Below, piece by piece: positions 5,858 to 56,300 of a stretch of DNA of 64,000 nucleotides. This DNA is from an uncultured Candidatus Saccharibacteria bacterium. Its GTDB lineage: Bacteria; Patescibacteriota; Saccharimonadia; CAZBQI01. Positions within the stretch are counted from its first letter, which is position 1. Each line of letters starts with the position of its first letter. The translations under genes and the position numbers were made by a program. The notes under the pieces are model-generated. The model was given only the letters and a program-made list of their open reading frames with translations, was not told the origin of the DNA and did not search any database. The DNA lies in contig CAZBQI010000002.1 in the NCBI GenBank assembly GCA_964494105.1, positions 18,936 to 82,935 on the forward strand. The letters run 5' to 3'.

Positions 5858-5981
5858 GGGTTATTTATTAACAACCTCAATATAGGCTTAATAAAGAGGG
5901 GGTGTCAATGCGCTTTTCTTTTATGCTAATGCTTATTTTTAGCTAAGCACAGCCATTATTATCTGACTAATGAAATCTACT

Positions 5982-7454
5982 CTACACGAAGTCAAAATAA
6001 TTATTCTTTATGTTTTTATCAAATTTTACTTTTTTTACCTTGATATACATAATAATTTGAACTGAAAATATAATTCCGTACATTGTAATTAACTGCCAAG
6101 GCAATAAGACCAACTGCTGACTAGCCCAAGATATCTGCGACAATTTTTCAATGCTGAAGACATTAAAGTGTAGTAGCCAACGCGCCGGCCAACCAATCCA
6201 ACCTGAATATACCGGGAACAACATTCCACTAAGACCTGCTAGAAAAGTCAGCAACATCGCTAATGGCACAAGTGGCAAAACTATCAAATTAGCAACAAAG
6301 GAAATTATTGAAACACGACTAAAAATGAATAGGATGAGTGGAAGTGTCATAATTTGAGCACAAAATGTTTCTATCGTTAGTTGCCACAACGCCCCAGGGC
6401 TTTTCTTTGGAAATAGGCGTGCCGAAATAGTGGGCGCCAAAATTAACACCCCATAGAAAGCCAGAAACGATAGATACCAACCAATATCAAACCAAAGGTA
6501 GCTGGGATTTAATCCGGCTGTAATAACTGCAGATACTAAAAGCAGAATACTGGCTTTTATAGTTCGGCCATAATACCAGGCAAGCAAGGCAATGGTTGAT
6601 ACTATAGCTGCACGCATTACAGAGGGACTAAGACCTGTCACCGCCAAAAAACTAAAAATCAATGCAAAAGAAATTGCCGTGGCTAAATACTTTGAAGATC
6701 TAGAAAATACCCGACGTGCAAATCTTACTAAAATTGTCAGATTGTATCCAGACACCGCAACTATATGCATCAGGCCAGTGATAACTAGTGCATCTTCGAG
6801 GCTACTTGGTAATAATGACCTGGTGCCAACTAGCAGACCCAGACCAAGCGAAGCCTGAACTTCGGGCAGAGCATTATATGTTCCAGCTATAAATTTGCTC
6901 CTTAATCTCTCAATATATGATTGGTTTCTGGCAACTAGCGAAATTTGCGCATAGTAAATTTGGCCTTGTTGATTGCCAAGTGAGGGTCGCAATCTGCCTT
7001 CTACCCTTATTACATCATTGCGATTTATTTTTGTCTTGGGGAAACCGCGCACCTTAATACGTCCCCCGCTGGGCACTTGTTCATTGGGTTTAGAAATATA
7101 TAAATTAGTTACCCGAAATTCGATTTGCTTTCTATCCGTTATGCTTGCATCTTCGGCAACCGTGCCGACAATCACTACTTTCTTGTTTAACTCACTCATG
7201 AGCGGAATGTAAGAAGATACTACACTTTGTCCTCTAGCTAGTCCGATATTTAAGAAAAACAAGGCCAAAACCAGAAAGAGAACCTTTTTGTTCTTAAGGA
7301 CCGCAATTAATACTATGAAGTTAGCCACTATTAGCTGCCAATTGGTTGCAACCCCGAAGCGTGACGCCCATAGTCCAAGCAGAAAAGTAGCGCAAGCCAA
7401 TCCTACTAGTCGAGATCTTGTCCAGTTAAATCTTGCAAACGGTGGTTTCATCAA
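5982..7454 (-). CDS. comEC: ComEC/Rec2 family DNA internalization channel (no beta-lactamase domain)
   Basis: N-terminal OB/DUF4131-like region, then a polytopic competence domain (HIVAVSGYNLTIL, FCAQIMTLPLILFIF). 490 aa. Confidence 0.8.
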   Translation of the reverse strand: MMKPPFARFNWTRSRLVGLACATFLLGLWASRFGVATNWQLIVANFIVLIAVLKNKKVLFLVLALFFLNIGLARGQSVVSSYIPLMSELNKKVVIVGTVAEDASITDRKQIEFRVTNLYISKPNEQVPSGGRIKVRGFPKTKINRNDVIRVEGRLRPSLGNQQGQIYYAQISLVARNQSYIERLRSKFIAGTYNALPEVQASLGLGLLVGTRSLLPSSLEDALVITGLMHIVAVSGYNLTILVRFARRVFSRSSKYLATAISFALIFSFLAVTGLSPSVMRAAIVSTIALLAWYYGRTIKASILLLVSAVITAGLNPSYLWFDIGWYLSFLAFYGVLILAPTISARLFPKKSPGALWQLTIETFCAQIMTLPLILFIFSRVSIISFVANLIVLPLVPLAMLLTFLAGLSGMLFPVYSGWIGWPARWLLHFNVFSIEKLSQISWASQQLVLLPWQLITMYGIIFSVQIIMYIKVKKVKFDKNIKNNYFDFV

Positions 7455-7540
7455 AACTATTTTATCGCTGAGTACAAACTTGGAAAAGCCGATTTCTAGC
7501 TATTCTATATGATGCGATAAGCTTTTATATATTTGTAATT

Positions 7541-7620
7541 GAGATGTATTGAGATGTATTGAGATGTATTTAGATGTATTTAGATGTATTTAGATGTATT
7601 TAGATGTATTTAGATGTATT
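7541..7620. repeat. 8 tandem copies of a 10-bp unit (3x GAGATGTATT, then 5x TAGATGTATT)
   Basis: Read directly from the sequence. It sits in the intergenic region between the comEC start and the racemase stop. Confidence 0.9.
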
Positions 7621-7706
7621 GGCATTTATGGATGCTAGCAACTCTAGTGGATAAGCAATCAGTAAATACAAGTTTACAATAAACCTGCTATAGCAATTTT
7701 TTACGC

Positions 7707-8399: not shown

Positions 8400-8643
8400 G
8401 TGTTAATTGTATCAAGAAAACAGAGGATAATTAGCTCGATTTTTTGTATAAGTCATTGAAGTGCCCCGCCTGTCTGGCGGACAGGTCGGGCAGACTGGTG
8501 GGATAAACGCTTCGCTACTCGCAATGATCGCATGCTCGAAGTAAACTTCTGCGCGTGCTCCCTGTGATCGAACCCGCCCTAGCTGGCGCTGGGTTCTCAT
8601 CATGTCATTCCAATTCTTTACTCACCTATGGTGAACAAAGAAT

Positions 8644-8720
8644 TGGAGGGCCTGGTGGGATTCGAACCCACGACACGCGGCTTAAAAGGCCGCTGCTCTA
8701 ACCAACTGAGCTACAGGCCC
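8644..8720 (-). tRNA. tRNA-Lys (anticodon TTT)
   Basis: Manual fold: acceptor GGGCCTG/CAGGCCC, D-arm GCTC..GAGC, anticodon stem GCGGC/GCCGC with loop CTTTTAA, T-arm GTGGG-TTCGAAT-CCCAC, CCA encoded. 77 nt. Confidence 0.85.
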
Positions 8721-25967: not shown

Positions 25968-26897
25968 TTAGTTCAAACGCCCATCTTTAGACAAAATAAT
26001 TTCACTGCGTTTCGCTCTTGCATATAGCTTGCCACTAACAGGACATAGCGCATCTAACTTGGCAGTTTTACAAAAATGCGACAAACGCCGTAGTTGCGGT
26101 TTTTGAATTTCAGCGCCGGCGTCCAGCTTGCGTAAACAGTGGTAAAGGAATTCATTTAACAGATCTAAATTCATACTAATAAGTGCATTGCGATCAAGTT
26201 TGATTTGATTACTATCAATAACTCCAATGGCATCAAAGCGCTTTTCTAGTAAGATTTCGATTCTATTACTATCAGCTTCGAGCTCAACCAGTAGCTTTGC
26301 AAATTCAGTCTTAAAGCTAGGCCTGGCTTTCTCAATTTTAGGGATAGTCTTGCGCCGAATGGCATTACGAGCGTAGTTTAAATTACTATTGGTTTGATCT
26401 TCGACCCATTGAAGTTTGTTTTTTTTAGCATATGCCACTATTTCGTCTTTGTAGACATCCCTTAAGGGCCTTAGTAGGTCAGTGTCTTTACTAAACGGAA
26501 TCATCCCTACTCGCCCGGTTCCGCGCTGGATGTTGAACAGAGCCGTTTCGATTCGGTCATCCAGGTGATGAGCCGTAATTATCTTATCTGCCTTATATTT
26601 TTTGCGCATTTGCCGCAAAAATTTATAGCGAGCAACGCGCGCCTTATCCTCGCTGGTTTTCTCTCCCAGTTTGCCTTGAGCGGAAACAAATTCTAGACCA
26701 TAGTTATCTGCTAAACTTTTTACAAGATCTTCGTCCTTACTGGAATCGTCACGAATGCCGTGGTTAAAATGCGCAACAATCAGTTTCCAAGGCCCGGCCT
26801 TGGAAACAAGCAAATCAAGCAGAACTACGGAATCCACACCACCGGAGACCGCCAAAATATACTTACCAGCTACTGGCCAAATTACTTTATTTAACAT
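25968..26897 (-). CDS. tilS: tRNA(Ile)-lysidine synthetase TilS
   Basis: PP-loop SGGVDSVVLLDLL and an N-type ATP pyrophosphatase domain. 309 aa. Confidence 0.9.
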   Translation of the reverse strand: MLNKVIWPVAGKYILAVSGGVDSVVLLDLLVSKAGPWKLIVAHFNHGIRDDSSKDEDLVKSLADNYGLEFVSAQGKLGEKTSEDKARVARYKFLRQMRKKYKADKIITAHHLDDRIETALFNIQRGTGRVGMIPFSKDTDLLRPLRDVYKDEIVAYAKKNKLQWVEDQTNSNLNYARNAIRRKTIPKIEKARPSFKTEFAKLLVELEADSNRIEILLEKRFDAIGVIDSNQIKLDRNALISMNLDLLNEFLYHCLRKLDAGAEIQKPQLRRLSHFCKTAKLDALCPVSGKLYARAKRSEIILSKDGRLN

Positions 26898-27084
26898 TCT
26901 TTTATTATCGTCTATCTGTTTGCTATAAGAAAATGCTCAAGTTTGATCTGGATTCAAAAGACAAAATTTATAGCTAACACATAGTCTGTTTGAAATTTTG
27001 AAAGGAGGGGTGGCGAAAAGTTGATATAATTCTTGTTAATGTAACTCAGCAAGAATAGTGAAAACTATTTGTATATTCCGACTT

Positions 27085-27159
27085 GGTGGCAGTGGGTGGA
27101 TTTGAACCACCGACCAACAGCTTATGAGTCTGCTGCTCTACCGCTGAGCTACACTGCCC
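27085..27159 (-). tRNA. tRNA with CAT anticodon (elongator Met or Ile2/lysidine type)
   Basis: Manual fold: acceptor GGCAGTG/CACTGCC, D-arm GCTC-AGCGGTA-GAGC, anticodon loop CTCATAA, T-arm GGTGG-TTCAAAT-CCACC, CCA encoded. There are no three G-C pairs in the anticodon stem, so it is not an initiator. It lies 187 bp from tilS. Confidence 0.8.
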
Positions 27160-29651: not shown

Positions 29652-30410
29652 CTACGGCCGCAGAGTTCCGGCAAATACTTGCCAGGCCAGCGCACTTTTT
29701 GCTACCAAACTCAATATAATGTACGCCCGCTCGCCATATAGGTAATCCTTCCATTTGCCAACTTTTTTGTATTGCAAAACCATATTGATAGCAAAACAGT
29801 TAAAGAATGCGAAAATCGAAACAAATATCCAGTAAACAAATGTCGGAGGAGCACTACCCTCTTGCGCACTAAAGAAGAAGTAAAGTGCTATTAGAATCCA
29901 TGGCACAATACCAGCAAGACAACCTACCCAGTAGCTGAGCCAATTTGTCTTTGTTGTTGTTTGATTATGCACTTCCATAATTAGTCCACATAGATTCATT
30001 ACAGCAACTAAAGCAAATACGGCAATTAGACTACCAAGATCGTATACACCAACAAGCATAGATATCGCCACCATCATGACAGACGCAGAAATACTGTATT
30101 CAATCCATCGCGCCTTATTAATACCTTTTTGCAAATTTGCTTCGTAGGTTTTTCTATACTTGGTGGCTATCAGCAAATGCGCTGCCGAGGAGAGAAATAG
30201 AAAACCGGCCACCAAAAAAGCTAGTGGAACGGTAAATAACTCTTTAGAAACCGGAACCAAGCTTTGAGTGGCAGTATCAAAATTAAGGTAGCTCGCCGTT
30301 ACTGGCAAACTAAAGTCGGTACTAAGCAGTAGTATCGCCAGTCCTTGCACAAAGTGTAGTGCGGACATTATTAAGTTAAATCTATTGAGTTTGTTTAGTT
30401 TTTCTTGCAT
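29652..30410 (-). CDS. heliorhodopsin
   Basis: From the internal Met (RBS AGGAAG upstream). Near-identical blocks to heliorhodopsin 48C12 as I recall it: RWIEYSISASVMM, GCLAGIVPWILIALYF, and YLYGERAYIILSLVAKSALAWQVFAGTL, the last containing the retinal Schiff-base Lys in helix 7. Confidence 0.85.
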   Translation of the reverse strand: MQEKLNKLNRFNLIMSALHFVQGLAILLLSTDFSLPVTASYLNFDTATQSLVPVSKELFTVPLAFLVAGFLFLSSAAHLLIATKYRKTYEANLQKGINKARWIEYSISASVMMVAISMLVGVYDLGSLIAVFALVAVMNLCGLIMEVHNQTTTKTNWLSYWVGCLAGIVPWILIALYFFFSAQEGSAPPTFVYWIFVSIFAFFNCFAINMVLQYKKVGKWKDYLYGERAYIILSLVAKSALAWQVFAGTLRP

Positions 30411-30465
30411 TATTGTCTTCCTCTTATGCCTATAAATTACAGCCCGCTGAAGCATTTTGCAATCA

Positions 30466-30927
30466 TCAAACAGTAATCTCGCGCACCTCGCAAAAGTCGG
30501 GCACCAGCGTATTAATGACAACACCCAGTTCGTGGCACAAAGCTGCAATCAGCATGCCATGAGTAAACCAAATTGATTCGGTTGGCGGACTCGCAATTAG
30601 CTTCTTGGCAGCTGCGAGTGCTTCCGGGGCAATAATACCCTTAGTTAGGTTTTTGATAGTTTCCGGCGGATTTGGTGTGTTTATTTCATTAAGATCCGGA
30701 CAAACAACCATATTTGAAAACCCGGCCAGCTCGGCAGTTTGATGTGTACGTAGAAGCTCGGATACCGCAACCGGCAGGTTAAAATCTACGCCTATTTTAA
30801 CCAGTTCAAAATGTAATTCCTTGGCTTGCTTCGTGCCGACTTCGCTAAGCGAAGCACCTTGTTTACCAAACAAGTCTCGATTAAGCCGAGTACCCTCGCT
30901 TTTGCCGTGCCGTATAACCAGTCTCAT
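30466..30927 (-). CDS. histidine phosphatase family protein (PGAM/SixA-like)
   Basis: RHG catalytic motif at the N-terminus (VIRHGKSEG) and a C-terminal TH(G) (WFTHGMLIAAL). 153 aa. Confidence 0.65.
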   Translation of the reverse strand: MRLVIRHGKSEGTRLNRDLFGKQGASLSEVGTKQAKELHFELVKIGVDFNLPVAVSELLRTHQTAELAGFSNMVVCPDLNEINTPNPPETIKNLTKGIIAPEALAAAKKLIASPPTESIWFTHGMLIAALCHELGVVINTLVPDFCEVREITV

Positions 30928-30934
30928 AGCCTAA

Positions 30935-31438
30935 TTATAGTTGATGGTTAATCTCATGAGCTGCTACAGCGTGATATGCTGCATCAGGGTCAGCCACAGA
31001 CGGGTTGCTTCTTGTGATTAGATCAACGGTCTCTGCGCACCTTTGCATATAATCTACTTGTTCCTTGAATGCCATCGGCATATCCTCTGGGAACTTTATT
31101 CTGCCATCAGCGCAACTTATCAAAGCCCTTCTCCTTTTAACTAAATCGTCATTTGTTGCACTTGACTCAACAAGTTTGCCATACAGTGTGTATTCCGTGG
31201 CTCGGGAGTTATCTGCTCGATGAATCAAACCTTGATGTAACCATGCTTCTACTTGCGCACCTTGTGTGTCCTCGTAAGTAGCATGAGGTGAGTTCCACAA
31301 AGGGGAATTCCTGTGATCAAATGGAACTGCAACTCTCAGCGCTTCCGCCAAAACACCCGACAGGTTTCGATGCTGTTCTATAAGCTCAGTGGATATACCT
31401 TCAAGTGGATCACGAAAATCCTCAGCACCAATTGGCAT
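30935..31438 (-). CDS. hypothetical protein (HExxH at the extreme C-terminus)
   Basis: 167 aa with no family recognised. Ends ...AAHEINHQL. GC is visibly higher than in neighbouring genes. Confidence 0.4.
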   Translation of the reverse strand: MPIGAEDFRDPLEGISTELIEQHRNLSGVLAEALRVAVPFDHRNSPLWNSPHATYEDTQGAQVEAWLHQGLIHRADNSRATEYTLYGKLVESSATNDDLVKRRRALISCADGRIKFPEDMPMAFKEQVDYMQRCAETVDLITRSNPSVADPDAAYHAVAAHEINHQL

Positions 31439-31591
31439 CTAATTACTCCTATTATCAAATAGTATTATATCATATTTTATATTTATTGCAATTATCTTCA
31501 GCTTAGACATAGATTGCATGGTGATTCTTGCTCACTACGCCGAATCTTCCGCTTCGCTCTACAGTTCGAATCCGGGCACCAGCGTGCTCTT

Positions 31592-31621
31592 AAGAAATAC
31601 AAAAACGCCCCAGTCGGGGCG
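31592..31621 (-). terminator. rho-independent terminator (CGCCCCGACTGGGGCG + TTTTTGTATTTC on minus strand)
   Basis: GC hairpin followed by a T-tract in minus-strand sense, downstream of the 31748..32521 gene. Confidence 0.6.
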
Positions 31622-31639
31622 CTTGTGATTTTCTTGGTA

Positions 31640-31745
31640 GCCCAAGTACATTCGAATTGGAACGTTATCTTATCTGAATTAGCGAGGTGGAAAGAGGTGT
31701 TATCTGTTACAGCAGGGGCTGTTTACTCTACCGAGTAGGAGTGGA
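31640..31745 (-). pseudogene. degenerate tRNA-fMet-like remnant (pseudo-tRNA)
   Basis: The minus-sense sequence keeps GGTAGAG (D-arm), TTCGAAT (T-loop) and a GCTACCA 3' end in the same order and spacing class as the intact tRNA-fMet at 32788..32862, but cannot be folded into a cloverleaf. Confidence 0.4.
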
Positions 31746-31747
31746 AC

Positions 31748-32521
31748 TTATATATCTTTCCTTTTAGCATGGGTCATGTTAACACCTTCTTTTGTAAAGA
31801 CTCCCCAATAAAGCTGTGAATTACCTTTTTGAGGATTAACTAAGCCACGCACTTCATAGGCAGGGTCTTCTGCTGCGGCAACAGCTATTGCTCGTCTGAC
31901 TAAAAGATTAAACGGATTTACACCATTGGTTGCTTCAAACTCTGCGTTTCGTTTTACTCCGCCAGGCGTTCCCTGGACATTTACAATAGACATAACACTA
32001 GCATCATCTTCAAAATGTAAGTTAAACCCCACTCTTGCAAGATAACCGTCAGGTACATGGAGCTGTATCTGAAAGAGCGCCTCAGGACATGGAGTTACAT
32101 CCTGCCTTGGTTGCGTAGGGTCATTTGTTAGGCGGTCGGTTAGTGAAAGTCGCATATCAAATGGTTCATAGCCATGGTCGCTCAGTGTAAAACGGTCAAT
32201 AACGTCGCCAATGTGGACAAGATTATCAAGTGCTCTCTCAAGCTGAAGACTGTTTTCTGGGTTAACTGTAGTAACAAATCCGCTGCGATAGCTTGTAGTC
32301 TCAGAAAGATAGGTAGCACCCCATGCGTTTGCAAAGTTCATACGCCCAAACCCGATTCCATTTTTCGCACCAGTATAGCGTGCTAAGAAAGACCATCGAG
32401 GGTCTTGGTCATCAGGTAAGAAACCGTAAAGTCCAAATGCAGTATCTACTACCTCGGTAGGTTTTTGCATAAATGGAGCATCTAAAGCAGGCGGTGCATC
32501 TACAATTAACGGACTAGGCAT
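31748..32521 (-). CDS. hypothetical protein
   Basis: 257 aa with no recognisable motif. It sits between the two tRNA-fMet-related modules. Confidence 0.45.
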   Translation of the reverse strand: MPSPLIVDAPPALDAPFMQKPTEVVDTAFGLYGFLPDDQDPRWSFLARYTGAKNGIGFGRMNFANAWGATYLSETTSYRSGFVTTVNPENSLQLERALDNLVHIGDVIDRFTLSDHGYEPFDMRLSLTDRLTNDPTQPRQDVTPCPEALFQIQLHVPDGYLARVGFNLHFEDDASVMSIVNVQGTPGGVKRNAEFEATNGVNPFNLLVRRAIAVAAAEDPAYEVRGLVNPQKGNSQLYWGVFTKEGVNMTHAKRKDI

Positions 32522-32620
32522 TATATTATTATATAATAAAATACTTATATTATCAATATATTGATGCTGCTGCTTGTGTTTATAAAACTCTATTAAAAAT
32601 AACAGAGGTCAAAATGCTTA

Positions 32621-32636
32621 TGGTAGCGGGGGCAGG
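32621..32636. repeat. 16-bp exact direct repeat of the tRNA-fMet 3' end (TGGTAGCGGGGGCAGG), a putative att remnant
   Basis: Identical to 32788-32803 (the T-stem 3' half, acceptor and CCA of the tRNA). Read directly. Confidence 0.8.
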
Positions 32637-32747
32637 TTATGGCTAATTCTGCATACGTCCTCGGAACAAGTTCCTGCGGGCGGACTTGAATTAACGAACC
32701 TGCCCTTCGGGCTATCAGGTTCTAATCCAGTGCTTCGCACTGTTCAA

Positions 32748-32775
32748 TGAAATACAAAACACCCCTTACGGGGTG
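32748..32775 (-). terminator. rho-independent terminator after tRNA-fMet (CACCCCGTAAGGGGTG + TTTTGTATTTC, minus strand)
   Basis: Hairpin followed by a T-tract in minus-strand sense, 13 nt after the tRNA 3' end. Confidence 0.65.
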
Positions 32776-32787
32776 CTTAGATTTCAT

Positions 32788-32862
32788 TGGTAGCGGGGGC
32801 AGGATTCGAACCTGCGACCTCCGGGTTATGAGCCCGACGAGCTGCCACTGCTCTACCCCGCG
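32788..32862 (-). tRNA. initiator tRNA-fMet (anticodon CAT)
   Basis: Manual fold: 1:72 mismatch (C·U). Three consecutive G-C pairs at the bottom of the anticodon stem (TCGGG/CCCGG), loop CTCATAA, T-arm GCAGG-TTCGAAT-CCTGC, CCA encoded. These are initiator hallmarks. Confidence 0.85.
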
Positions 32863-32915
32863 CTAAAGATAGGAGTTTTTCTTTTTTACTATATTAACAG
32901 ATACAAGCTACTATA

Positions 32916-33332
32916 TCAATTTGGTTCTTTGCGAAATAGAAAGAACATCCATTGCTCTAAATTGCTTTTACTGCGCTGAGAAAAGTTTTGCTCCTCAGCA
33001 ATTTGCTCTGGTGTTTTTGGCGTTTCCAGTTCACGCGGAATTCTATCGGGAAAAATAACTACCTGTTCCCCGGGTGCTTGCAACCCGAGCTTATCTCTAG
33101 CTTCCCTATCTGCAAATGCGTCTGTTTTGTAGTAGGCAATACTATACTCTAGCTGTTTATTCTGCAATTCTAGCAGTTCTACTTCTGAGTTTAACTTGTC
33201 GATATCTTGCTGCAGTTTGTAGTTATAGCCAATCACCTGAATCGTTGAGTACGATCCGTATAGAATAAATGCAATTGCAACGGCGCTAACAATGTGGCGG
33301 GTGGTTAGTATCTGCTTTAATTTATCTGACAT
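32916..33332 (-). CDS. septum formation initiator family protein (FtsB/DivIC-like)
   Basis: N-terminal TM, then a coiled coil (LQQDIDKLNSEVELLELQNKQLEYSIAYY), then ...DREARDKLGL. 138 aa. Confidence 0.6.
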   Translation of the reverse strand: MSDKLKQILTTRHIVSAVAIAFILYGSYSTIQVIGYNYKLQQDIDKLNSEVELLELQNKQLEYSIAYYKTDAFADREARDKLGLQAPGEQVVIFPDRIPRELETPKTPEQIAEEQNFSQRSKSNLEQWMFFLFRKEPN

Positions 33333-33533: not shown

Positions 33534-33609
33534 GGGGGTGTAGCTCACCGGTCAGAGCAGGTGGCTCATAACCACTTGGTAGATGGTTCGACTCCATCCA
33601 CCCCCACCA
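33534..33609 (+). tRNA. tRNA with CAT anticodon (elongator Met or Ile2/lysidine type)
   Basis: Manual fold: acceptor GGGGGTG/CACCCCC, D-arm GCTC-ACCGGTCA-GAGC, anticodon stem GGTGG/CCACT with loop CTCATAA, T-arm GATGG-TTCGACT-CCATC, CCA encoded. 76 nt. Confidence 0.85.
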
Positions 33610-41157: not shown

Positions 41158-41709
41158 CTATCTCAGTTGCTTTGGTTTGTCATCAAGTAGTGAGATGATT
41201 CTAGATGGTCGACCCAATAATTCTCCGCCGTCTACATAAAAGTCTACTGTTTCGCCAAAATATGATCTGGCACTTTGTACATTGTATGCCGGCTTTTTAC
41301 CTTCGGGGTTAGCGCTTGGTGCAATCAGTGGACCCGTTCTTTCAAGAAGTTTCTGCAATTCAGAATGCTTAGGATTGCGAAAAGCTAACGAAGCCTTTCC
41401 GCGATGCAGATATTCCCACTTTCCAAGGCCCGGCCTTGGAAGCGGAAGAATTATGCTAAATGGACCTGGCCAGTAATCTTGGGCCGTAGTAACTTTTGTC
41501 GGGTCAAGATTAAATTGGCCTAAGTCTTTCAAGTTAGAAAACAGAATAATGCATGGCTTAGTAAAGTCTCGGCCTTTTAGGCTATATACCCGCTCTACGG
41601 CACGCTCATTTAAAGCAGATGCTACTAATCCATAAATAGTATCGGTCGGAATAACACCAACCTTTCCGGCTTTAAGCAAATCGGCAGCTTGTTTCCAATT
41701 AGTATCCAT
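41158..41709 (-). CDS. tsaC: L-threonylcarbamoyladenylate synthase (TsaC/YrdC/Sua5 family)
   Basis: GKVGVIPTDTIYGLVASALNERAVERVYSLKGR. 183 aa. Confidence 0.85.
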   Translation of the reverse strand: MDTNWKQAADLLKAGKVGVIPTDTIYGLVASALNERAVERVYSLKGRDFTKPCIILFSNLKDLGQFNLDPTKVTTAQDYWPGPFSIILPLPRPGLGKWEYLHRGKASLAFRNPKHSELQKLLERTGPLIAPSANPEGKKPAYNVQSARSYFGETVDFYVDGGELLGRPSRIISLLDDKPKQLR

Positions 41710-42616: not shown

Positions 42617-43537
42617 ATGAGTCTTAAGAATAGAAGCCTGGTTAGTATCAACGATTACACTAAATCTGAATGGCTTCATATTTTAAAGGTCGCTAAGAAG
42701 TTCGAATCAAAGCCCCCAAAAAACCTACTGTCTGGCAAAGTAATTGCCAGTCTTTTTTTTGAACCGTCTACACGAACCAGGCTCAGTTTTGAAAGCGCCG
42801 TTCTTAAGCTAGGCGGTTCAATTATCAGTTTCGCCGATGCAAAAACCACCAGCACCAAAAAAGGCGAAACCCTGAAAGACACCGCGCGCATTGTAAGTAA
42901 ATATGCTGACTTATTAGTTATGCGTCATCCTGTCGAAGGCAGTGCTCGTTTAGCTAGCGAATATATAGAATCTCCTGTTGTTAATGCTGGTGACGGTGCC
43001 AATGAACATCCTACCCAAACACTGCTTGACCTCTATAGTATTCAGAAAACCCAAGGAAAACTAGATAACCTGACTGTCTCGTTTGTTGGCGACTTAAAAT
43101 ATGGACGAACAACGCGCTCACTAATGCTGGCTCTGTCTGAGTTTAAAAATATCAAATTCATTTTGGTTTCTCCGCCCGAACTTAAAATCACATCAGACTT
43201 GCGTTACGAACTCGAACAAAACAATGCCGATTTCGAAGAGATAAGATCTTTAAACGAAGCAATTGAAAAAAGTGACATAATCTATATGACCAGAATTCAA
43301 CAAGAACGGTTTTCTGATCCCCTTGACTACGAACGCGTAAAGGATAGCTATGTTCTGCATGCATCAATGCTTGATCGGGCAAAACCAAATGCCAAAGTCA
43401 TGCACCCGCTGCCAAGAGTACATGAAATTAATGAAGATGTTGACGACACAAAACATGCTTATTACTTTGAGCAAGCGGCCAATGGCATACCTGTTAGACA
43501 AGCTATCATTGCAGTAATTCTAGGAGCCGTAAAGTGA
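42617..43537 (+). CDS. pyrB: aspartate carbamoyltransferase catalytic subunit
   Basis: STRTRLSFE, HPTQ and HPLP motifs. 306 aa. Confidence 0.95.
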   Translation: MSLKNRSLVSINDYTKSEWLHILKVAKKFESKPPKNLLSGKVIASLFFEPSTRTRLSFESAVLKLGGSIISFADAKTTSTKKGETLKDTARIVSKYADLLVMRHPVEGSARLASEYIESPVVNAGDGANEHPTQTLLDLYSIQKTQGKLDNLTVSFVGDLKYGRTTRSLMLALSEFKNIKFILVSPPELKITSDLRYELEQNNADFEEIRSLNEAIEKSDIIYMTRIQQERFSDPLDYERVKDSYVLHASMLDRAKPNAKVMHPLPRVHEINEDVDDTKHAYYFEQAANGIPVRQAIIAVILGAVK

Positions 43538-53670: not shown

Positions 53671-53728
53671 TTGTATAAACCTATTGTAACATAAAATGCT
53701 TACGGCAACAGCTTAGATGTACTAATTA

Positions 53729-55105
53729 TTACAACAGTATTTTATGCTGGCGCAGAACAAAAATGCCGGCTATGCCCGAGGCAATTAGGCTGAAGGCAAA
53801 GTAAATTGCAAGCTTGGAGCTATCGCCGGTGTCGGCAAGTTCCTCGCTGCTAGCGGCAGCTAGGGTAAAGCTAACAGAGGTGGTGGCAGTTTGGTTAGGG
53901 CCAAATGCAAACTGCCGCGGACTATCACCAACCGCAATTGTACCCGTAGTAACTAGAGTTGTCGGATTACGCACACTTATCTGATCTAGTCCTGCCTCCG
54001 ATACATACAGTTTTGAGAAATCACTAGTAAATGCAGGGAAATATGGTGTTGAGCCAGCTCCAGTATTTACGGTACTAGTTACAGTATTTGAGTTTGTATT
54101 GATAATTGAAATATTGTCGGATGTGGCATTTGCAACCAATAATAATGATTGGTCTTGGTTAAATGCGCTCCCAAGCGGTCCATCCCCAACACTAATAGCA
54201 CTGCCGGAAGTTTCCGTCTGGGTATTGTAAGGCGTTGCTGAGTCTCCACCATTAGAAATAGAGTAGCCGTGTATGTTGTCGGATTTAAGGGGTCCACCTC
54301 CACCAGACGAGGCAAAGGTGCTTAATTGTGTATTTGTAGCAATATTTATCACAGACATCGTACCGCTACCAACATTTGCAACATACACACGCGATGAATC
54401 AGAGCTCATAGCAGGGTAAGCTGGGAAATTTTGGTTATAGCCTGTTACGGCAGCCGAGATTGTAGGGTCAGCTGAGCTATAACGTGTCACAGTGCCACCG
54501 CTAAAATCCCCTGCCTCCGAACTAACATAAAAATAAGTGCCATCGGGCGTGTAATTCACTGCAATTGCATGGGCGCCCGCAGCTGTTAGGTTATGAGTAA
54601 TTACCGGCACCTCCGGGTTACTTAAACTCCAGACCTTTATTGCATTTGCGCCAAATCCAGAGACACTAACCATTTGTGTACCACTTGGGCTAACCACCAC
54701 GTTGTTTTGACTAACACTAGAGCTAATATCGGCACCAATCTTTTCATCGGTGACTGCGTTTATGACAGAGATTGTGGAATCTCCAGAATTTGGCACATAA
54801 GCATACTGCACACTCGCCGTCGCCTCAATTGTTTTAGCGCCTGCGCTCTGGCCCGTAACATTAAGGCTCCAGTTGCCCGAGTTGTCTGAAGTGGTGGTGC
54901 CAACGGCGGTGCCGTTGACCTTGACTGTAATGGCGCGCTTGGCGGTGGCAGTACCGGTAACGGTAAAACTTGTGCCGATGGCGGTAGAGCCATTGCTTGG
55001 CGAGGTAATCGCAACTGAAGTGGCAGCCGAGACAGCTAAAGGCATGAACGCCATTGTAGCAACCAGTAAAACTGCAGCTACAAATGAAGTGAGCCTTTTG
55101 AACAT
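53729..55105 (-). CDS. LADTG-anchored surface protein with YVTN-type beta-propeller repeats
   Basis: Signal peptide, Ig-like N-domain, and repeated motifs (YVPNSGDSTISVINAVTD, VYVANVGSGTMSVINIATN, LLVANATSDNISIINTNSN, LYVSEAGLDQISVRNPTT). C-terminus EELADTGDSSKLAIYFAFSLIASGIAGIFVLRQHKILL. Confidence 0.65.
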   Translation of the reverse strand: MFKRLTSFVAAVLLVATMAFMPLAVSAATSVAITSPSNGSTAIGTSFTVTGTATAKRAITVKVNGTAVGTTTSDNSGNWSLNVTGQSAGAKTIEATASVQYAYVPNSGDSTISVINAVTDEKIGADISSSVSQNNVVVSPSGTQMVSVSGFGANAIKVWSLSNPEVPVITHNLTAAGAHAIAVNYTPDGTYFYVSSEAGDFSGGTVTRYSSADPTISAAVTGYNQNFPAYPAMSSDSSRVYVANVGSGTMSVINIATNTQLSTFASSGGGGPLKSDNIHGYSISNGGDSATPYNTQTETSGSAISVGDGPLGSAFNQDQSLLLVANATSDNISIINTNSNTVTSTVNTGAGSTPYFPAFTSDFSKLYVSEAGLDQISVRNPTTLVTTGTIAVGDSPRQFAFGPNQTATTSVSFTLAAASSEELADTGDSSKLAIYFAFSLIASGIAGIFVLRQHKILL

Positions 55106-55220
55106 TGTTTGTTTCTCCTCAATTAACTTCTCTTAACTCTGTCACACATTTTAACACAAATCGCTTGTGGTTCACCAAGGCTAAGACTGCTCGTGGCGTT
55201 AAGGTTGCTTGAATCTGTTC

Positions 55221-56300
55221 TTACAGCAGTTTTTTGTGTCGACGTAGAACAAATGTCCCAGCTACGCCCGAGGCAACTAGGCTGAAGGCAAAGTAAAGTG
55301 CAAGCTTGGAGCTATCGCCGGTGTCGGCTAGAGTCGCCCCTGATTCAGTAACTGTAATTGTGACTGTTACGGTAGTGGTGCCACCATTACCGTCGCTAAC
55401 TTGTACCGTAAGTGTGTATTTTCCCGCTGGCACATTTGCCCTTGTGGTGGTGATGTTGCCGTTAGCCGAGTTAATAGCAAAGTAGCCGGCGCCATTACCA
55501 GCGGTTATGCTGTAAGCTAGAGTGTCGCCATTTGGATCTGTAGCACTATAGCTTGATCCGTTTACAATAACTGCTCCATTTGCAGTAGCTGAAGAAACAA
55601 TTGTTGTGGAGACACTCGCATTAGACACCACCGGAGCTAATGGGCAGGTAGCGTTGTCGTAACTGAGAGTGATTGTTGGTAAGCCTAACACGGCAGTACC
55701 TTGATAATGAGTACCGCCAGAAAATGTAACAGCCTCAAAGTTAACAAACGAAGCAATATTGGCTAAGTTTCCAGCGGTTGTGCTCATAGTCTGGCCACTC
55801 CCTGACGCACTGTACATTCCATTGGTATCACGAGAAGTCTGATTATAACCGGCAAGAGTAACTCCTCCGTTGATATCAACTAATGCACTCACAATTGTGT
55901 ATTCATCATTACCTGGTTGGGCATTTTGAAGTTCGCGGGTGTAGCTGCTAAACGTTACATCTACCGGCGTATTGCTCGAGCAGGTGCTAAGTACAGAAGG
56001 AATAGTAATCATAGAAAATTCATTACCCGACCCACCGGCTGGCTCCGGGCTATCTAGCCCCGGATTTATTACTGTACCCGGAGTGTTACGAGATGCAATT
56101 GTAACATTTGGAAGCGTTGTGCCGGCCTGTGCTATAGCAAGGAACCCCCCGCTACCGGGTTGCCAGGCTGTAGGGGTAACAGTTTCGGTAACCGCCAACG
56201 CATGAACAGACGTAGTTGATAAAAACATTGGCGCTATAGAACCAATTGTAAATACCACTAAGGTGATAATTAATTTTAGTTTATCTGCTAGGTTGCTCAT
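55221..56300 (-). CDS. LADTG-anchored surface protein with cadherin-like domain (paralog B)
   Basis: Signal peptide. Cadherin-repeat signature ATDPNGDTLAYSITAGNGAGYFAINSANGNITT...GKYTLTVQVSDGNGGTTTVTVTITV. C-terminus TLADTGDSSKLALYFAFSLVASGVAGTFVLRRHKKLL. Confidence 0.65.
   Translation of the reverse strand: MSNLADKLKLIITLVVFTIGSIAPMFLSTTSVHALAVTETVTPTAWQPGSGGFLAIAQAGTTLPNVTIASRNTPGTVINPGLDSPEPAGGSGNEFSMITIPSVLSTCSSNTPVDVTFSSYTRELQNAQPGNDEYTIVSALVDINGGVTLAGYNQTSRDTNGMYSASGSGQTMSTTAGNLANIASFVNFEAVTFSGGTHYQGTAVLGLPTITLSYDNATCPLAPVVSNASVSTTIVSSATANGAVIVNGSSYSATDPNGDTLAYSITAGNGAGYFAINSANGNITTTRANVPAGKYTLTVQVSDGNGGTTTVTVTITVTESGATLADTGDSSKLALYFAFSLVASGVAGTFVLRRHKKLL

Follow-up and report, generated by a model that had tools for sequence, protein, structure and literature searches.

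Saccharibacteria and other members of the candidate phyla radiation (CPR) have genomes of about 1 Mb with few recognizable mobile elements, and their routes of gene gain are poorly understood. Downstream of tyrT in E. coli there are 178-bp repeats, each containing the last 19 nt of tRNA-Tyr, which are the source of rtT RNA. Integron attC sites and the attP(+) hairpin of the CTX phage are folded single-strand recombination sites. In Islander-type islands, a displaced fragment of the target gene marks the island end (PMC4383910). Tandem islands at ssrA have 20-bp repeats, are inserted at the T-loop and include members without an integrase (PMC3146451), and both cis-mobilizable elements (CIMEs) and accretion have been defined (PMC5704250). 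Here we describe the region behind the initiator tRNA gene (tRNA-fMet) of an uncultured Candidatus Saccharibacteria bacterium (assembly GCA_964494105.1), where copies of the tRNA 3' end (tails) accompany two strain-specific open reading frames (ORFs), ORF257 and ORF167. The window analysed is a stretch of 64,000 nt with 42.8% GC (contig CAZBQI010000002.1, positions 18,936 to 82,935). Its genes, among them DivIC, a heliorhodopsin and a DUF2207 protein, and the relatives of its proteins, such as those of ORF257, assign it to the Saccharimonadales (CPR/Patescibacteria).

Our favoured reading, in which we place about even confidence, is that the region is a decayed, integrase-less array that grew by accretion, as in CIMEs, at a recombination hot spot in the 3' end of tRNA-fMet, and that ORF257 and ORF167 are its strain-specific cargo. 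On the minus strand, where all features from the DivIC to the histidine phosphatase gene lie, the locus reads as follows: tRNA-fMet, terminator A, a 109-nt folded segment, a 16-nt tail, ORF257 with its own promoter, a non-coding element (element C), a short tail (TTCGAAT-N8-GCTACCA), terminator B with half of a second unit, ORF167 and the backbone. At this concrete site, single strain-specific genes are exchanged on a backbone that is otherwise conserved, and the breakpoints fall at tail copies of the initiator tRNA. The conserved, covarying unit of about 125 nt behind tRNA-fMet and tRNA-Lys is either an undescribed small RNA linked to tRNA genes or the site at which an undescribed miniature element recombines, and either would be new to CPR genome biology.

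The initiator tRNA and its 16-nt tail copy

The initiator tRNA gene is intact (32788..32862, anticodon CAT), as found by both ARAGORN and Rfam (tRNA, 64.6 bits), and its sequence shows the hallmarks of an initiator, a C1xU72 mismatch and an anticodon stem with three G-C pairs (GGG/CCC). A promoter-like site (TTGATA-17-TAATAT, 32891..32919), a pattern match from a consensus scan, lies upstream. Downstream are a spacer and intrinsic terminator A (32747..32787), identified by terminator scan and inspection, with its stem at 32778..32757 and a T-rich tail after it. The last 16 nt of the tRNA gene are then repeated exactly at 32621..32636 as CCTGCCCCCGCTACCA, which covers the 3' strands of the T-stem and the acceptor plus ACCA. 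In a pattern search the 16-mer TGGTAGCGGGGGCAGG was exact at 32621..32636 and at 32788..32803. When up to three mismatches were allowed, the window had three matches (the third, at 43399, with 3 mismatches), a number reached in none of 100 shuffles.

An earlier inspection of the letters of this DNA, the sequence-only reading, had reported the tRNA, its terminator and the exact repeat, and in these points it is borne out. It had also taken the repeat for a boundary created together with an island of two ORFs, which does not hold. The perfect copy bounds only a 151-bp unit, not ORF257 and ORF167, and it closes a gene-less segment of about 165 nt (tail unit A: terminator, structured segment and tRNA-end copy) that is orthologous in relatives lacking both ORFs, namely L135 (82% identity), L134 and L056.

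Contigs of the same strain from three samples all break inside the tRNA. Strain polymorphism was considered and rejected as the cause of these breaks, because k-1 arithmetic fits the 75-nt tRNA as an exact repeat common to co-occurring genomes.

A variable slot in close relatives

Related loci were sought by scanning the 54 3'-terminal nt of tRNA-fMet against GTDB genomes, which yielded 120 loci from several phyla; a search of GTDB genomes with the DivIC protein gave no confirmed match. The close relatives L134, L135 and L136 were reached through homologues of the histidine phosphatase (71-74% identity) and compared with the window by blastn.

In L135, homology to the window extends across DivIC, the tRNA and unit A and breaks off precisely at the final base of the 16-nt copy (32621); this copy is the left edge of a variable slot. 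Homology resumes at 31748..31658 and again at 30950, just before the histidine phosphatase (HisPhos) gene. The first of these segments is element C (31658..31748), a stretch of about 90 nt of conserved non-coding DNA that begins right after the ORF257 stop codon and forms the right edge of the slot. Where the window has ORF257, L135 has an unrelated gene of 235 aa and L134 a third, also unrelated, of 242 aa, each followed by the start of element C. Beyond element C is the second, short copy of the tRNA end (31635..31657), in which TTCGAAT (31656..31650) and GCTACCA (31641..31635) are 8 nt apart, as against 9 nt in the tRNA. Homology to L136 ends just after GCTACCAAG, and homology to the tRNA-proximal unit of L134 starts at GCTACCA. 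ORF167, too, has counterparts in position only: the relatives carry a Peptidase_M23 gene and other genes in its place.

The content between tRNA-fMet and HisPhos thus differs in every relative. L134, L135 and L136 have other genes there and lack both ORF257 and ORF167, so that an ancestral origin of the two ORFs at this tRNA is rejected and acquisition, as proposed in the sequence-only reading, is favoured.

The flanks of this region are conserved. On the side near the tRNA there is a DivIC/FtsB-like gene (32916..33332, Pfam DivIC), and its synteny with tRNA-fMet was seen in six Saccharibacteria loci. On the far side the conserved backbone begins with the histidine phosphatase gene (30466..30927, Pfam His_Phos_1). 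The order HisPhos, heliorhodopsin, DUF2207 is kept in L134 and L135, and L136 shows only the pair M23-HisPhos. L135 shares the backbone order of the window: DivIC, tRNA-fMet, unit A, HisPhos, heliorhodopsin, DUF2207, tRNA-Met(CAT) and TilS.

Genes of the variable region

ORF257 (31748..32521) has 30 homologues beyond itself, with 46-66% identity, none of which carries a Pfam domain; the relatives are named "Candidatus Saccharimonadales". Searches of Pfam, NCBIfam and PDB sequences with ORF257 gave no match. Its AlphaFold model has a predicted local distance difference test score (pLDDT) of 92.8, and the top Foldseek matches are GNAT acetyltransferases (E ~1e-2, which is weak, probability ~1, about 110 alignment columns). 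On this weak fold match the protein may be GNAT-like (acyltransferase-like) with an N-terminal helical domain. The homologues are non-syntenic in the five other contexts examined, where neither tRNA fragments nor conserved flanks accompany them, and the idea that ORF257 is a tRNA-linked cassette gene was discarded.

A predicted promoter (TTGATA-17-TATAAT, 11/12 consensus positions) lies at 32528..32556, and its -10 box ends 6 nt ahead of the ATG. ORF257 and its homologues in L001, L003, L004 and L005 all have an extended -10 (TGnTATAAT) ending about 6-10 nt before the ATG and no Shine-Dalgarno sequence. This spacing suggests that the mRNAs of ORF257 and its homologues are leaderless.

ORF167 (30935..31438) is a strain-specific ORFan. 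Protein searches covering 5.8e9 clustered proteins and 1.84e9 representatives (full HMMER) returned only ORF167 itself, and its AlphaFold model, with a pLDDT of 40.8, is uninformative. It also has a predicted promoter (TTGCAA-16-TG-TATAAT, 31464..31491, from the consensus scan), and an AGGAG Shine-Dalgarno sequence precedes its ATG.

The two ORFs had been called unannotatable, and indeed neither matches Pfam, PHROG, PADLOC or NCBIfam; the comparison with phage and defence-system databases proposed there (PHROG and PADLOC) gave nothing. They had also been described as richer in GC than their neighbours. Measured against 61 window genes (GC 0.432 +/- 0.028), the GC of ORF257 is 0.441 (z +0.33) and that of ORF167 0.457 (z +0.92), and the codon log-likelihood (z +0.42 and -0.07, respectively) indicates native usage, so this part of the description fails.

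In L056, another Saccharibacterium, the first gene after three tail units (5879-6409) is a classical GNAT acetyltransferase-like ORF with the motif QGRKLAG. The presence of a GNAT-like first gene after the units in both L056 and the window may be coincidence.

A structured tail unit behind tRNA genes

The segment between terminator A and the 16-nt copy (32637..32745, 109 nt) is predicted to be folded. It consists of a hairpin H1 (GTGC-GAA-GCAC), a stem GAACC/GGTTC capped by H3 (GCCC-GAA-GGGC), and a long hairpin, H4, with a CUUG loop. Across four A-type orthologues RNAalifold gave 34 base pairs, 13 with compensatory double changes. In an alignment of eight members 89.6% of the cells pair, compared with 27-40% when partners are slid, a contrast that is somewhat inflated because the alignment was fitted to a covariance model. 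Double changes occur in 27 of the 33 pairs of that alignment, and none of 500 shuffles reached the observed values. Loops of the family are often CUUG, CUCG, GNRA or C-GNA-G. Since G-U pairs are far commoner than A-C, the pattern points to the tRNA-sense strand as the one that would fold, whether in RNA or in single-stranded DNA.

A covariance model built from the four A-type units (R1) recovers more distant units in L056 and L130, and also a second member in the window (8496..8616, minus strand; 30.8 bits, E 9e-6 to 2.5e-8). This unit lies directly downstream of tRNA-Lys(UUU) (8644..8720, minus strand). Its end, ATCCCACCAG, copies 10 nt of the T-stem 3' strand and acceptor of tRNA-Lys rather than the fMet tail, and a GC-rich hairpin comes after it. 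The inner core CGCGCAGAAGTTTACTTCGAGCAT is shared with the fMet units of L134 and L135. An origin of the inner GGTTCG/GAACC stem as a copy from the cognate tRNA was considered and set aside, as the fMet and Lys units fit ordinary stem covariation equally well; in Saccharibacteria only the terminal tail copy is clearly tRNA-specific. Beside the tRNA-Lys unit there are no variable genes, and a 230-aa ORF follows it, racemase-like by inspection of its sequence alone (no family search was made).

Rfam 15 at the gathering threshold found only four tRNAs in the whole window, and no family for the structured unit or element C; at E up to 10 the tRNA was the only credible match in 31400..32900. SRP, 6S, tmRNA, hammerhead and rtT were rejected as identities of the unit for want of an Rfam match, and manual motif comparisons with tmRNA, SRP and hammerhead also failed. 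The covarying family of tail units found after tRNA-fMet and tRNA-Lys is undescribed, and the island is an ordinary one.

Tail units in other genomes

In L056 there are three tandem units after the tRNA, each with a terminator, a segment of 125-170 nt and a tail copy. The tails match at 16/16, 15/16 and 16/16 positions, whereas neither the three segments nor the three terminators are related to one another. Single units are found in L085, L130 and L133, and the tail is decayed in L085 and L130. Of 101 related loci, 6 have a direct tail copy in the 400 nt downstream; upstream copies are confined to 3 of 115 loci and are interpreted as tandem tRNA genes.

A simpler version is present in Planctomycetota (L010, L023, L027, L055, L060, L090 and L101), and consists of a terminator, an inverted tRNA-end copy, a variable hairpin and a direct copy. 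Unit 2 of L060 is unit 1 of L027, so the extra unit adjoins the tRNA. In L055 a Phage_integrase gene (Pfam, 7.5e-39) follows the unit, and other Planctomycetota loci have 12-nt repeats of tail plus terminator 0.7-3 kb downstream. In L023 (the chromosome of Engelhardtia mirabilis Pla133), L010, L090 and L101 an 86-nt near-perfect palindrome, sometimes in tandem, stands right after the tRNA-fMet terminator. In L023 it lies about 50-140 nt downstream of tRNA-fMet and its arms, inverted and direct copies of the tRNA 3' end (TGGTAGCGGGGGCAGGATTCGA...TCGAATCCTGCCCCCGCTACCA), are perfect over 22 nt, the inverted arm being complementary to the tRNA 3' end.

Eighteen IMG/VR contigs also have the tRNA-fMet stretch from T-arm to CCA, at provirus ends or in attP-like sites. 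The unit itself was not found when metagenome and viral contigs were scanned for its exact pattern. Further scans of viral contigs, for a generic pattern of the unit, the H4 core and element C, gave nothing but a single match, in a coding region of a high-GC (69%) contig and taken as chance.

Proposed accretion at the tRNA and its alternatives

Under accretion, incoming DNA would enter the tRNA gene by site-specific recombination in the T-loop/acceptor region. It would have to supply a replacement 3' end and terminator, and the old 3' end would be pushed distally. Repeated entry would build an array in which each displaced tRNA tail is a junction mark. We infer that the junctions were made by a site-specific recombinase acting in trans. 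Near-perfect tails between unrelated segments would be expected in such an array, because each tail is functional tRNA sequence until it is displaced. Accretion also accounts for homology breaks exactly at the tail copies and for changes of unit order between genomes: unit 2 of L056 corresponds to unit A of the window, and the distal module of the window (module B, see below) to the tRNA-proximal unit of L134. The integrase beside the simpler unit of L055 and the tRNA-fMet stretch at provirus ends are accounted for as well.

The sequence-only reading had seen the classic footprint of integration at a tRNA 3' end with the integrase gone. Its core stands, in that the tail copies are exact breakpoints and no tyrosine-recombinase motif was found in window ORFs of at least 120 aa, whereas its details (a repeat bounding the two ORFs, a decayed tRNA in module B, a foreign composition) do not.

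Several observations weigh against accretion. An element of 165 bp is very small for excision as a double-stranded circle. The unit is vertically inherited in the window, L135 and L134 (about 80% identity), and so has not been mobile recently. The native composition of both cargo ORFs gives no signal of foreign origin, and the right edge of the ORF167 segment lacks a repeat. No recombinase was found in the window or in any Saccharibacteria locus fetched, by motif search only: none of the 83 window ORFs of at least 120 aa has the tyrosine-recombinase motif H-x-[LIVMFAC]-R-H-[TSAG]. Pfam likewise found no integrase among the neighbouring ORFs. Nor did the scans of viral contigs described above reveal an autonomous element with the unit or element C. 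Plain homologous replacement would also give exact breakpoints at conserved flanks. Lastly, the strong compensatory covariation with G-U pairs is not needed by double-stranded att arms and suggests that the unit works in single-stranded form, as RNA or DNA.

We regard the main rival as a possible explanation, though one with a probability well short of even. The tail unit might be a small structured RNA gene, or a 3'-trailer RNA of the tRNA, that is co-transcribed with the tRNA or made just after it and whose 3' end mimics that of the tRNA. Arrays would then arise by tandem duplication and unequal crossing-over, as with the 178-bp repeats at tyrT, and the slot genes would vary by homologous replacement between the conserved flanks in competent cells, with no site-specific recombinase. 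The covariation with G-U pairs on the tRNA-sense strand and the stable CUUG, CUCG and GNRA tetraloops fit such an RNA, as do the terminators that follow every unit in L056, L134 and L135 and the vertical conservation of the unit in relatives. No hairpin-plus-T-run separates tRNA-Lys from its unit, so that co-transcription is possible there; by contrast, a strong terminator stands between tRNA-fMet and its unit, and a scan found no convincing promoter before the latter. The native composition of the cargo would suit gene replacement between competent cells, and the 490-aa membrane ORF at 5982..7454 is ComEC-like, as judged from its sequence alone with no family search made.

Other evidence is difficult to reconcile with a small RNA. 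The fold is kept while the tail decays (L085, L130, L134 and unit 2 of L056), so the tail does not behave like a part of an RNA under selection. The tails of L056 are near-perfect beside segments and terminators that can barely be aligned, yet duplication followed by drift would age all parts alike. The Planctomycetota versions contain a perfect 22-nt inverted copy of the tRNA end and adjoin integrases, and no Rfam family matches the unit. The small-RNA explanation and accretion overlap in part and are not fully exclusive.

We consider it unlikely, but worth stating, that the tail units (125-170 nt) are themselves a new, structure-defined class of gene-less miniature elements, either non-autonomous mobile elements or folded single-strand recombination sites, which dock on the 3' ends of tRNAs (fMet and Lys). 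If this were true, the docking units would be an integron-like platform for the capture and swapping of single genes behind the initiator tRNA, in CPR genomes and, in the simpler palindromic form, in Planctomycetota.

Module B and element C

Module B (31541..31634) consists of a spacer, terminator B (31624..31603, found by terminator scan) and a 5' half-unit of the B type that extends to GATTCGG. Local alignment of 32880..32600 with 31760..31440 scores 48, compared with 17.4 +/- 2.2 (maximum 27) in 300 shuffles (z ~14). The aligned block of modules A and B includes GCTACCA, the spacer, terminator B and about 45-50 nt beyond, about 106 nt in all with some 70% identity. The proposal of a diverged second copy of the whole tRNA module is therefore correct as to the significant similarity, the terminator, and the TTCGAAT T-loop and GCTACCA motifs, which are present 8 nt apart. 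It is wrong as to the tRNA, which is absent, and as to the DNA behind the terminator, where only about 50 nt can be aligned rather than 100. A tRNA pseudogene was specifically rejected: neither ARAGORN nor Rfam (E up to 10) finds a tRNA in 31635..31748, and this stretch does not align significantly with the tRNA body.

Module B is 86% identical to positions 23-121 of L134, a sequence that begins inside the tRNA, and there it directly follows a real tRNA-fMet. The L134 unit is a chimera, in which a B-type part is fused at GGTTCG to an A-type 3' half. Modules A and B are therefore old alleles brought together rather than a recent local duplication, because each has a closer orthologue elsewhere (A in L135, 82%; B in L134, 86%) than the 70% paralogue here.

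The same comparison bears on the alternative offered in the sequence-only reading, a local segmental duplication in which the tRNA, the terminator and the downstream DNA were copied and the distal copy decayed into module B. Such a duplication could explain the significant similarity over about 106 nt and the T-loop and GCTACCA motifs in B. We nevertheless find it very improbable and largely refuted by these orthologues, as the split between A and B predates the lineages, and what was taken for a tRNA body is element C, a sequence without likeness to tRNA that relatives keep behind unrelated genes. Chance repeats beside ordinary ancestral ORFs, to which only the native ORF composition would lend support, have next to no probability given the exact 16-mer, a match count reached by no shuffle, the alignment z of about 14, the same architecture in other genomes and the absence of both ORFs from syntenic relatives.

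Element C is 87% identical to positions 2451-2541 of L135 and 81% identical to 18-141 of L136, where the genes before it are unrelated or unknown. Its primary sequence is conserved, its structure is weak, and it holds three TTCCA(C) repeats (P about 2e-4); as a speculation, these would suit protein-binding sites. In three genomes element C begins at most 8 nt from the stop codon of a gene, and these three genes are unrelated to one another; one of the occurrences is L134 1059-1087.

Neighbouring genes and repeats

Immediately downstream of HisPhos (30466-30927, minus strand) there is a heliorhodopsin gene (29652-30548, minus strand; Pfam 8e-103), and the longest reading frames of the two genes overlap. 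The pair is syntenic in L134 and L135. The DUF2207 protein of the window carries a poly-Gly tail. All three tRNAs with CAT anticodons are located within 6.5 kb, at 27084-27158, 32788-32862 (the initiator) and 33534-33609, and their order is kept in L135. The two non-initiators are probably elongator Met and Ile2, and a TilS-like gene adjoins the tRNA at 27084-27158.

The window also contains several repeats. A palindromic sequence of 25-27 nt, TTTCCAAGGCCCGGCCTTGGAAA, occurs twice (26780-26806 and 41417-41446) with 96% identity and 14.6 kb between the copies, one of which is within or beside the TilS-like gene region. A direct repeat of 114 nt (53726-53839 and 55218-55331) has 86% identity and a distance of 1.5 kb. 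About eleven tandem copies of a 10-nt unit (ATTGAGATGT / ATTTAGATGT) lie at 7528-7637, in the intergenic region between the 230-aa and 490-aa ORFs.

Comparison with known systems

The locus resembles integron attC sites and the CTX attP(+) hairpin in having imperfect palindromes of 60-170 nt in which structure rather than sequence is conserved, and different genes in one slot. In the Planctomycetota units, moreover, a variable loop is enclosed by the pairing of an inverted with a direct target-site copy, and the unit nearest the anchor appears to be the newest. This likeness is an analogy: a nearby recombinase of the IntI or Xer type is lacking, each gene has a promoter of its own, and each genome has only one cassette-like slot. 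No intI was found beside the insertion site, where the neighbours are DivIC, tRNA-Met and a methyltransferase (Pfam). Nor are promoterless attC cassettes matched, since ORF257 and ORF167 have their own predicted promoters and element C is weakly structured; there are no R/L box motifs, for which no formal search was made.

As with the tyrT repeats of E. coli, repeated units behind a tRNA gene end in a copy of its 3' end and might be released as small RNA. The sequence and fold are unrelated to those repeats (no Rfam rtT match), and the units of L056 are unrelated segments with separate terminators.

In common with Islander-type islands (PMC4383910), there is an intact target gene at one end, a displaced 3'-end copy at the junction, and cargo that is absent from the site in relatives; the repeat here extends from the T-loop/T-stem boundary to CCA. 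Unlike in those islands, no integrase was found by Pfam or motif, the composition does not deviate, and the perfect repeat bounds about 150 bp without a gene. The cargo lies beyond this repeat and is bounded by a 7-nt tail copy and the 90-nt element.

The locus also resembles the tandem ssrA islands and CIMEs of Dehalococcoides and streptococci (PMC3146451, PMC5704250). The ssrA islands differ in being kilobases long and gene-bearing, 16 of them with an integration module (serine recombinase DsiB), whereas the units described here are 125-170 nt, non-coding, and conserved in structure with covariation. As in CIMEs, att-type repeats flank the element, and integration or transfer genes were not found (Pfam, motif). 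Like these islands and CIMEs, the locus has elements stacked behind a single small-RNA gene, short 3'-end repeats, putative insertion at the T-loop and many members without an integration module, and in both cases the region is the main site of strain variation.

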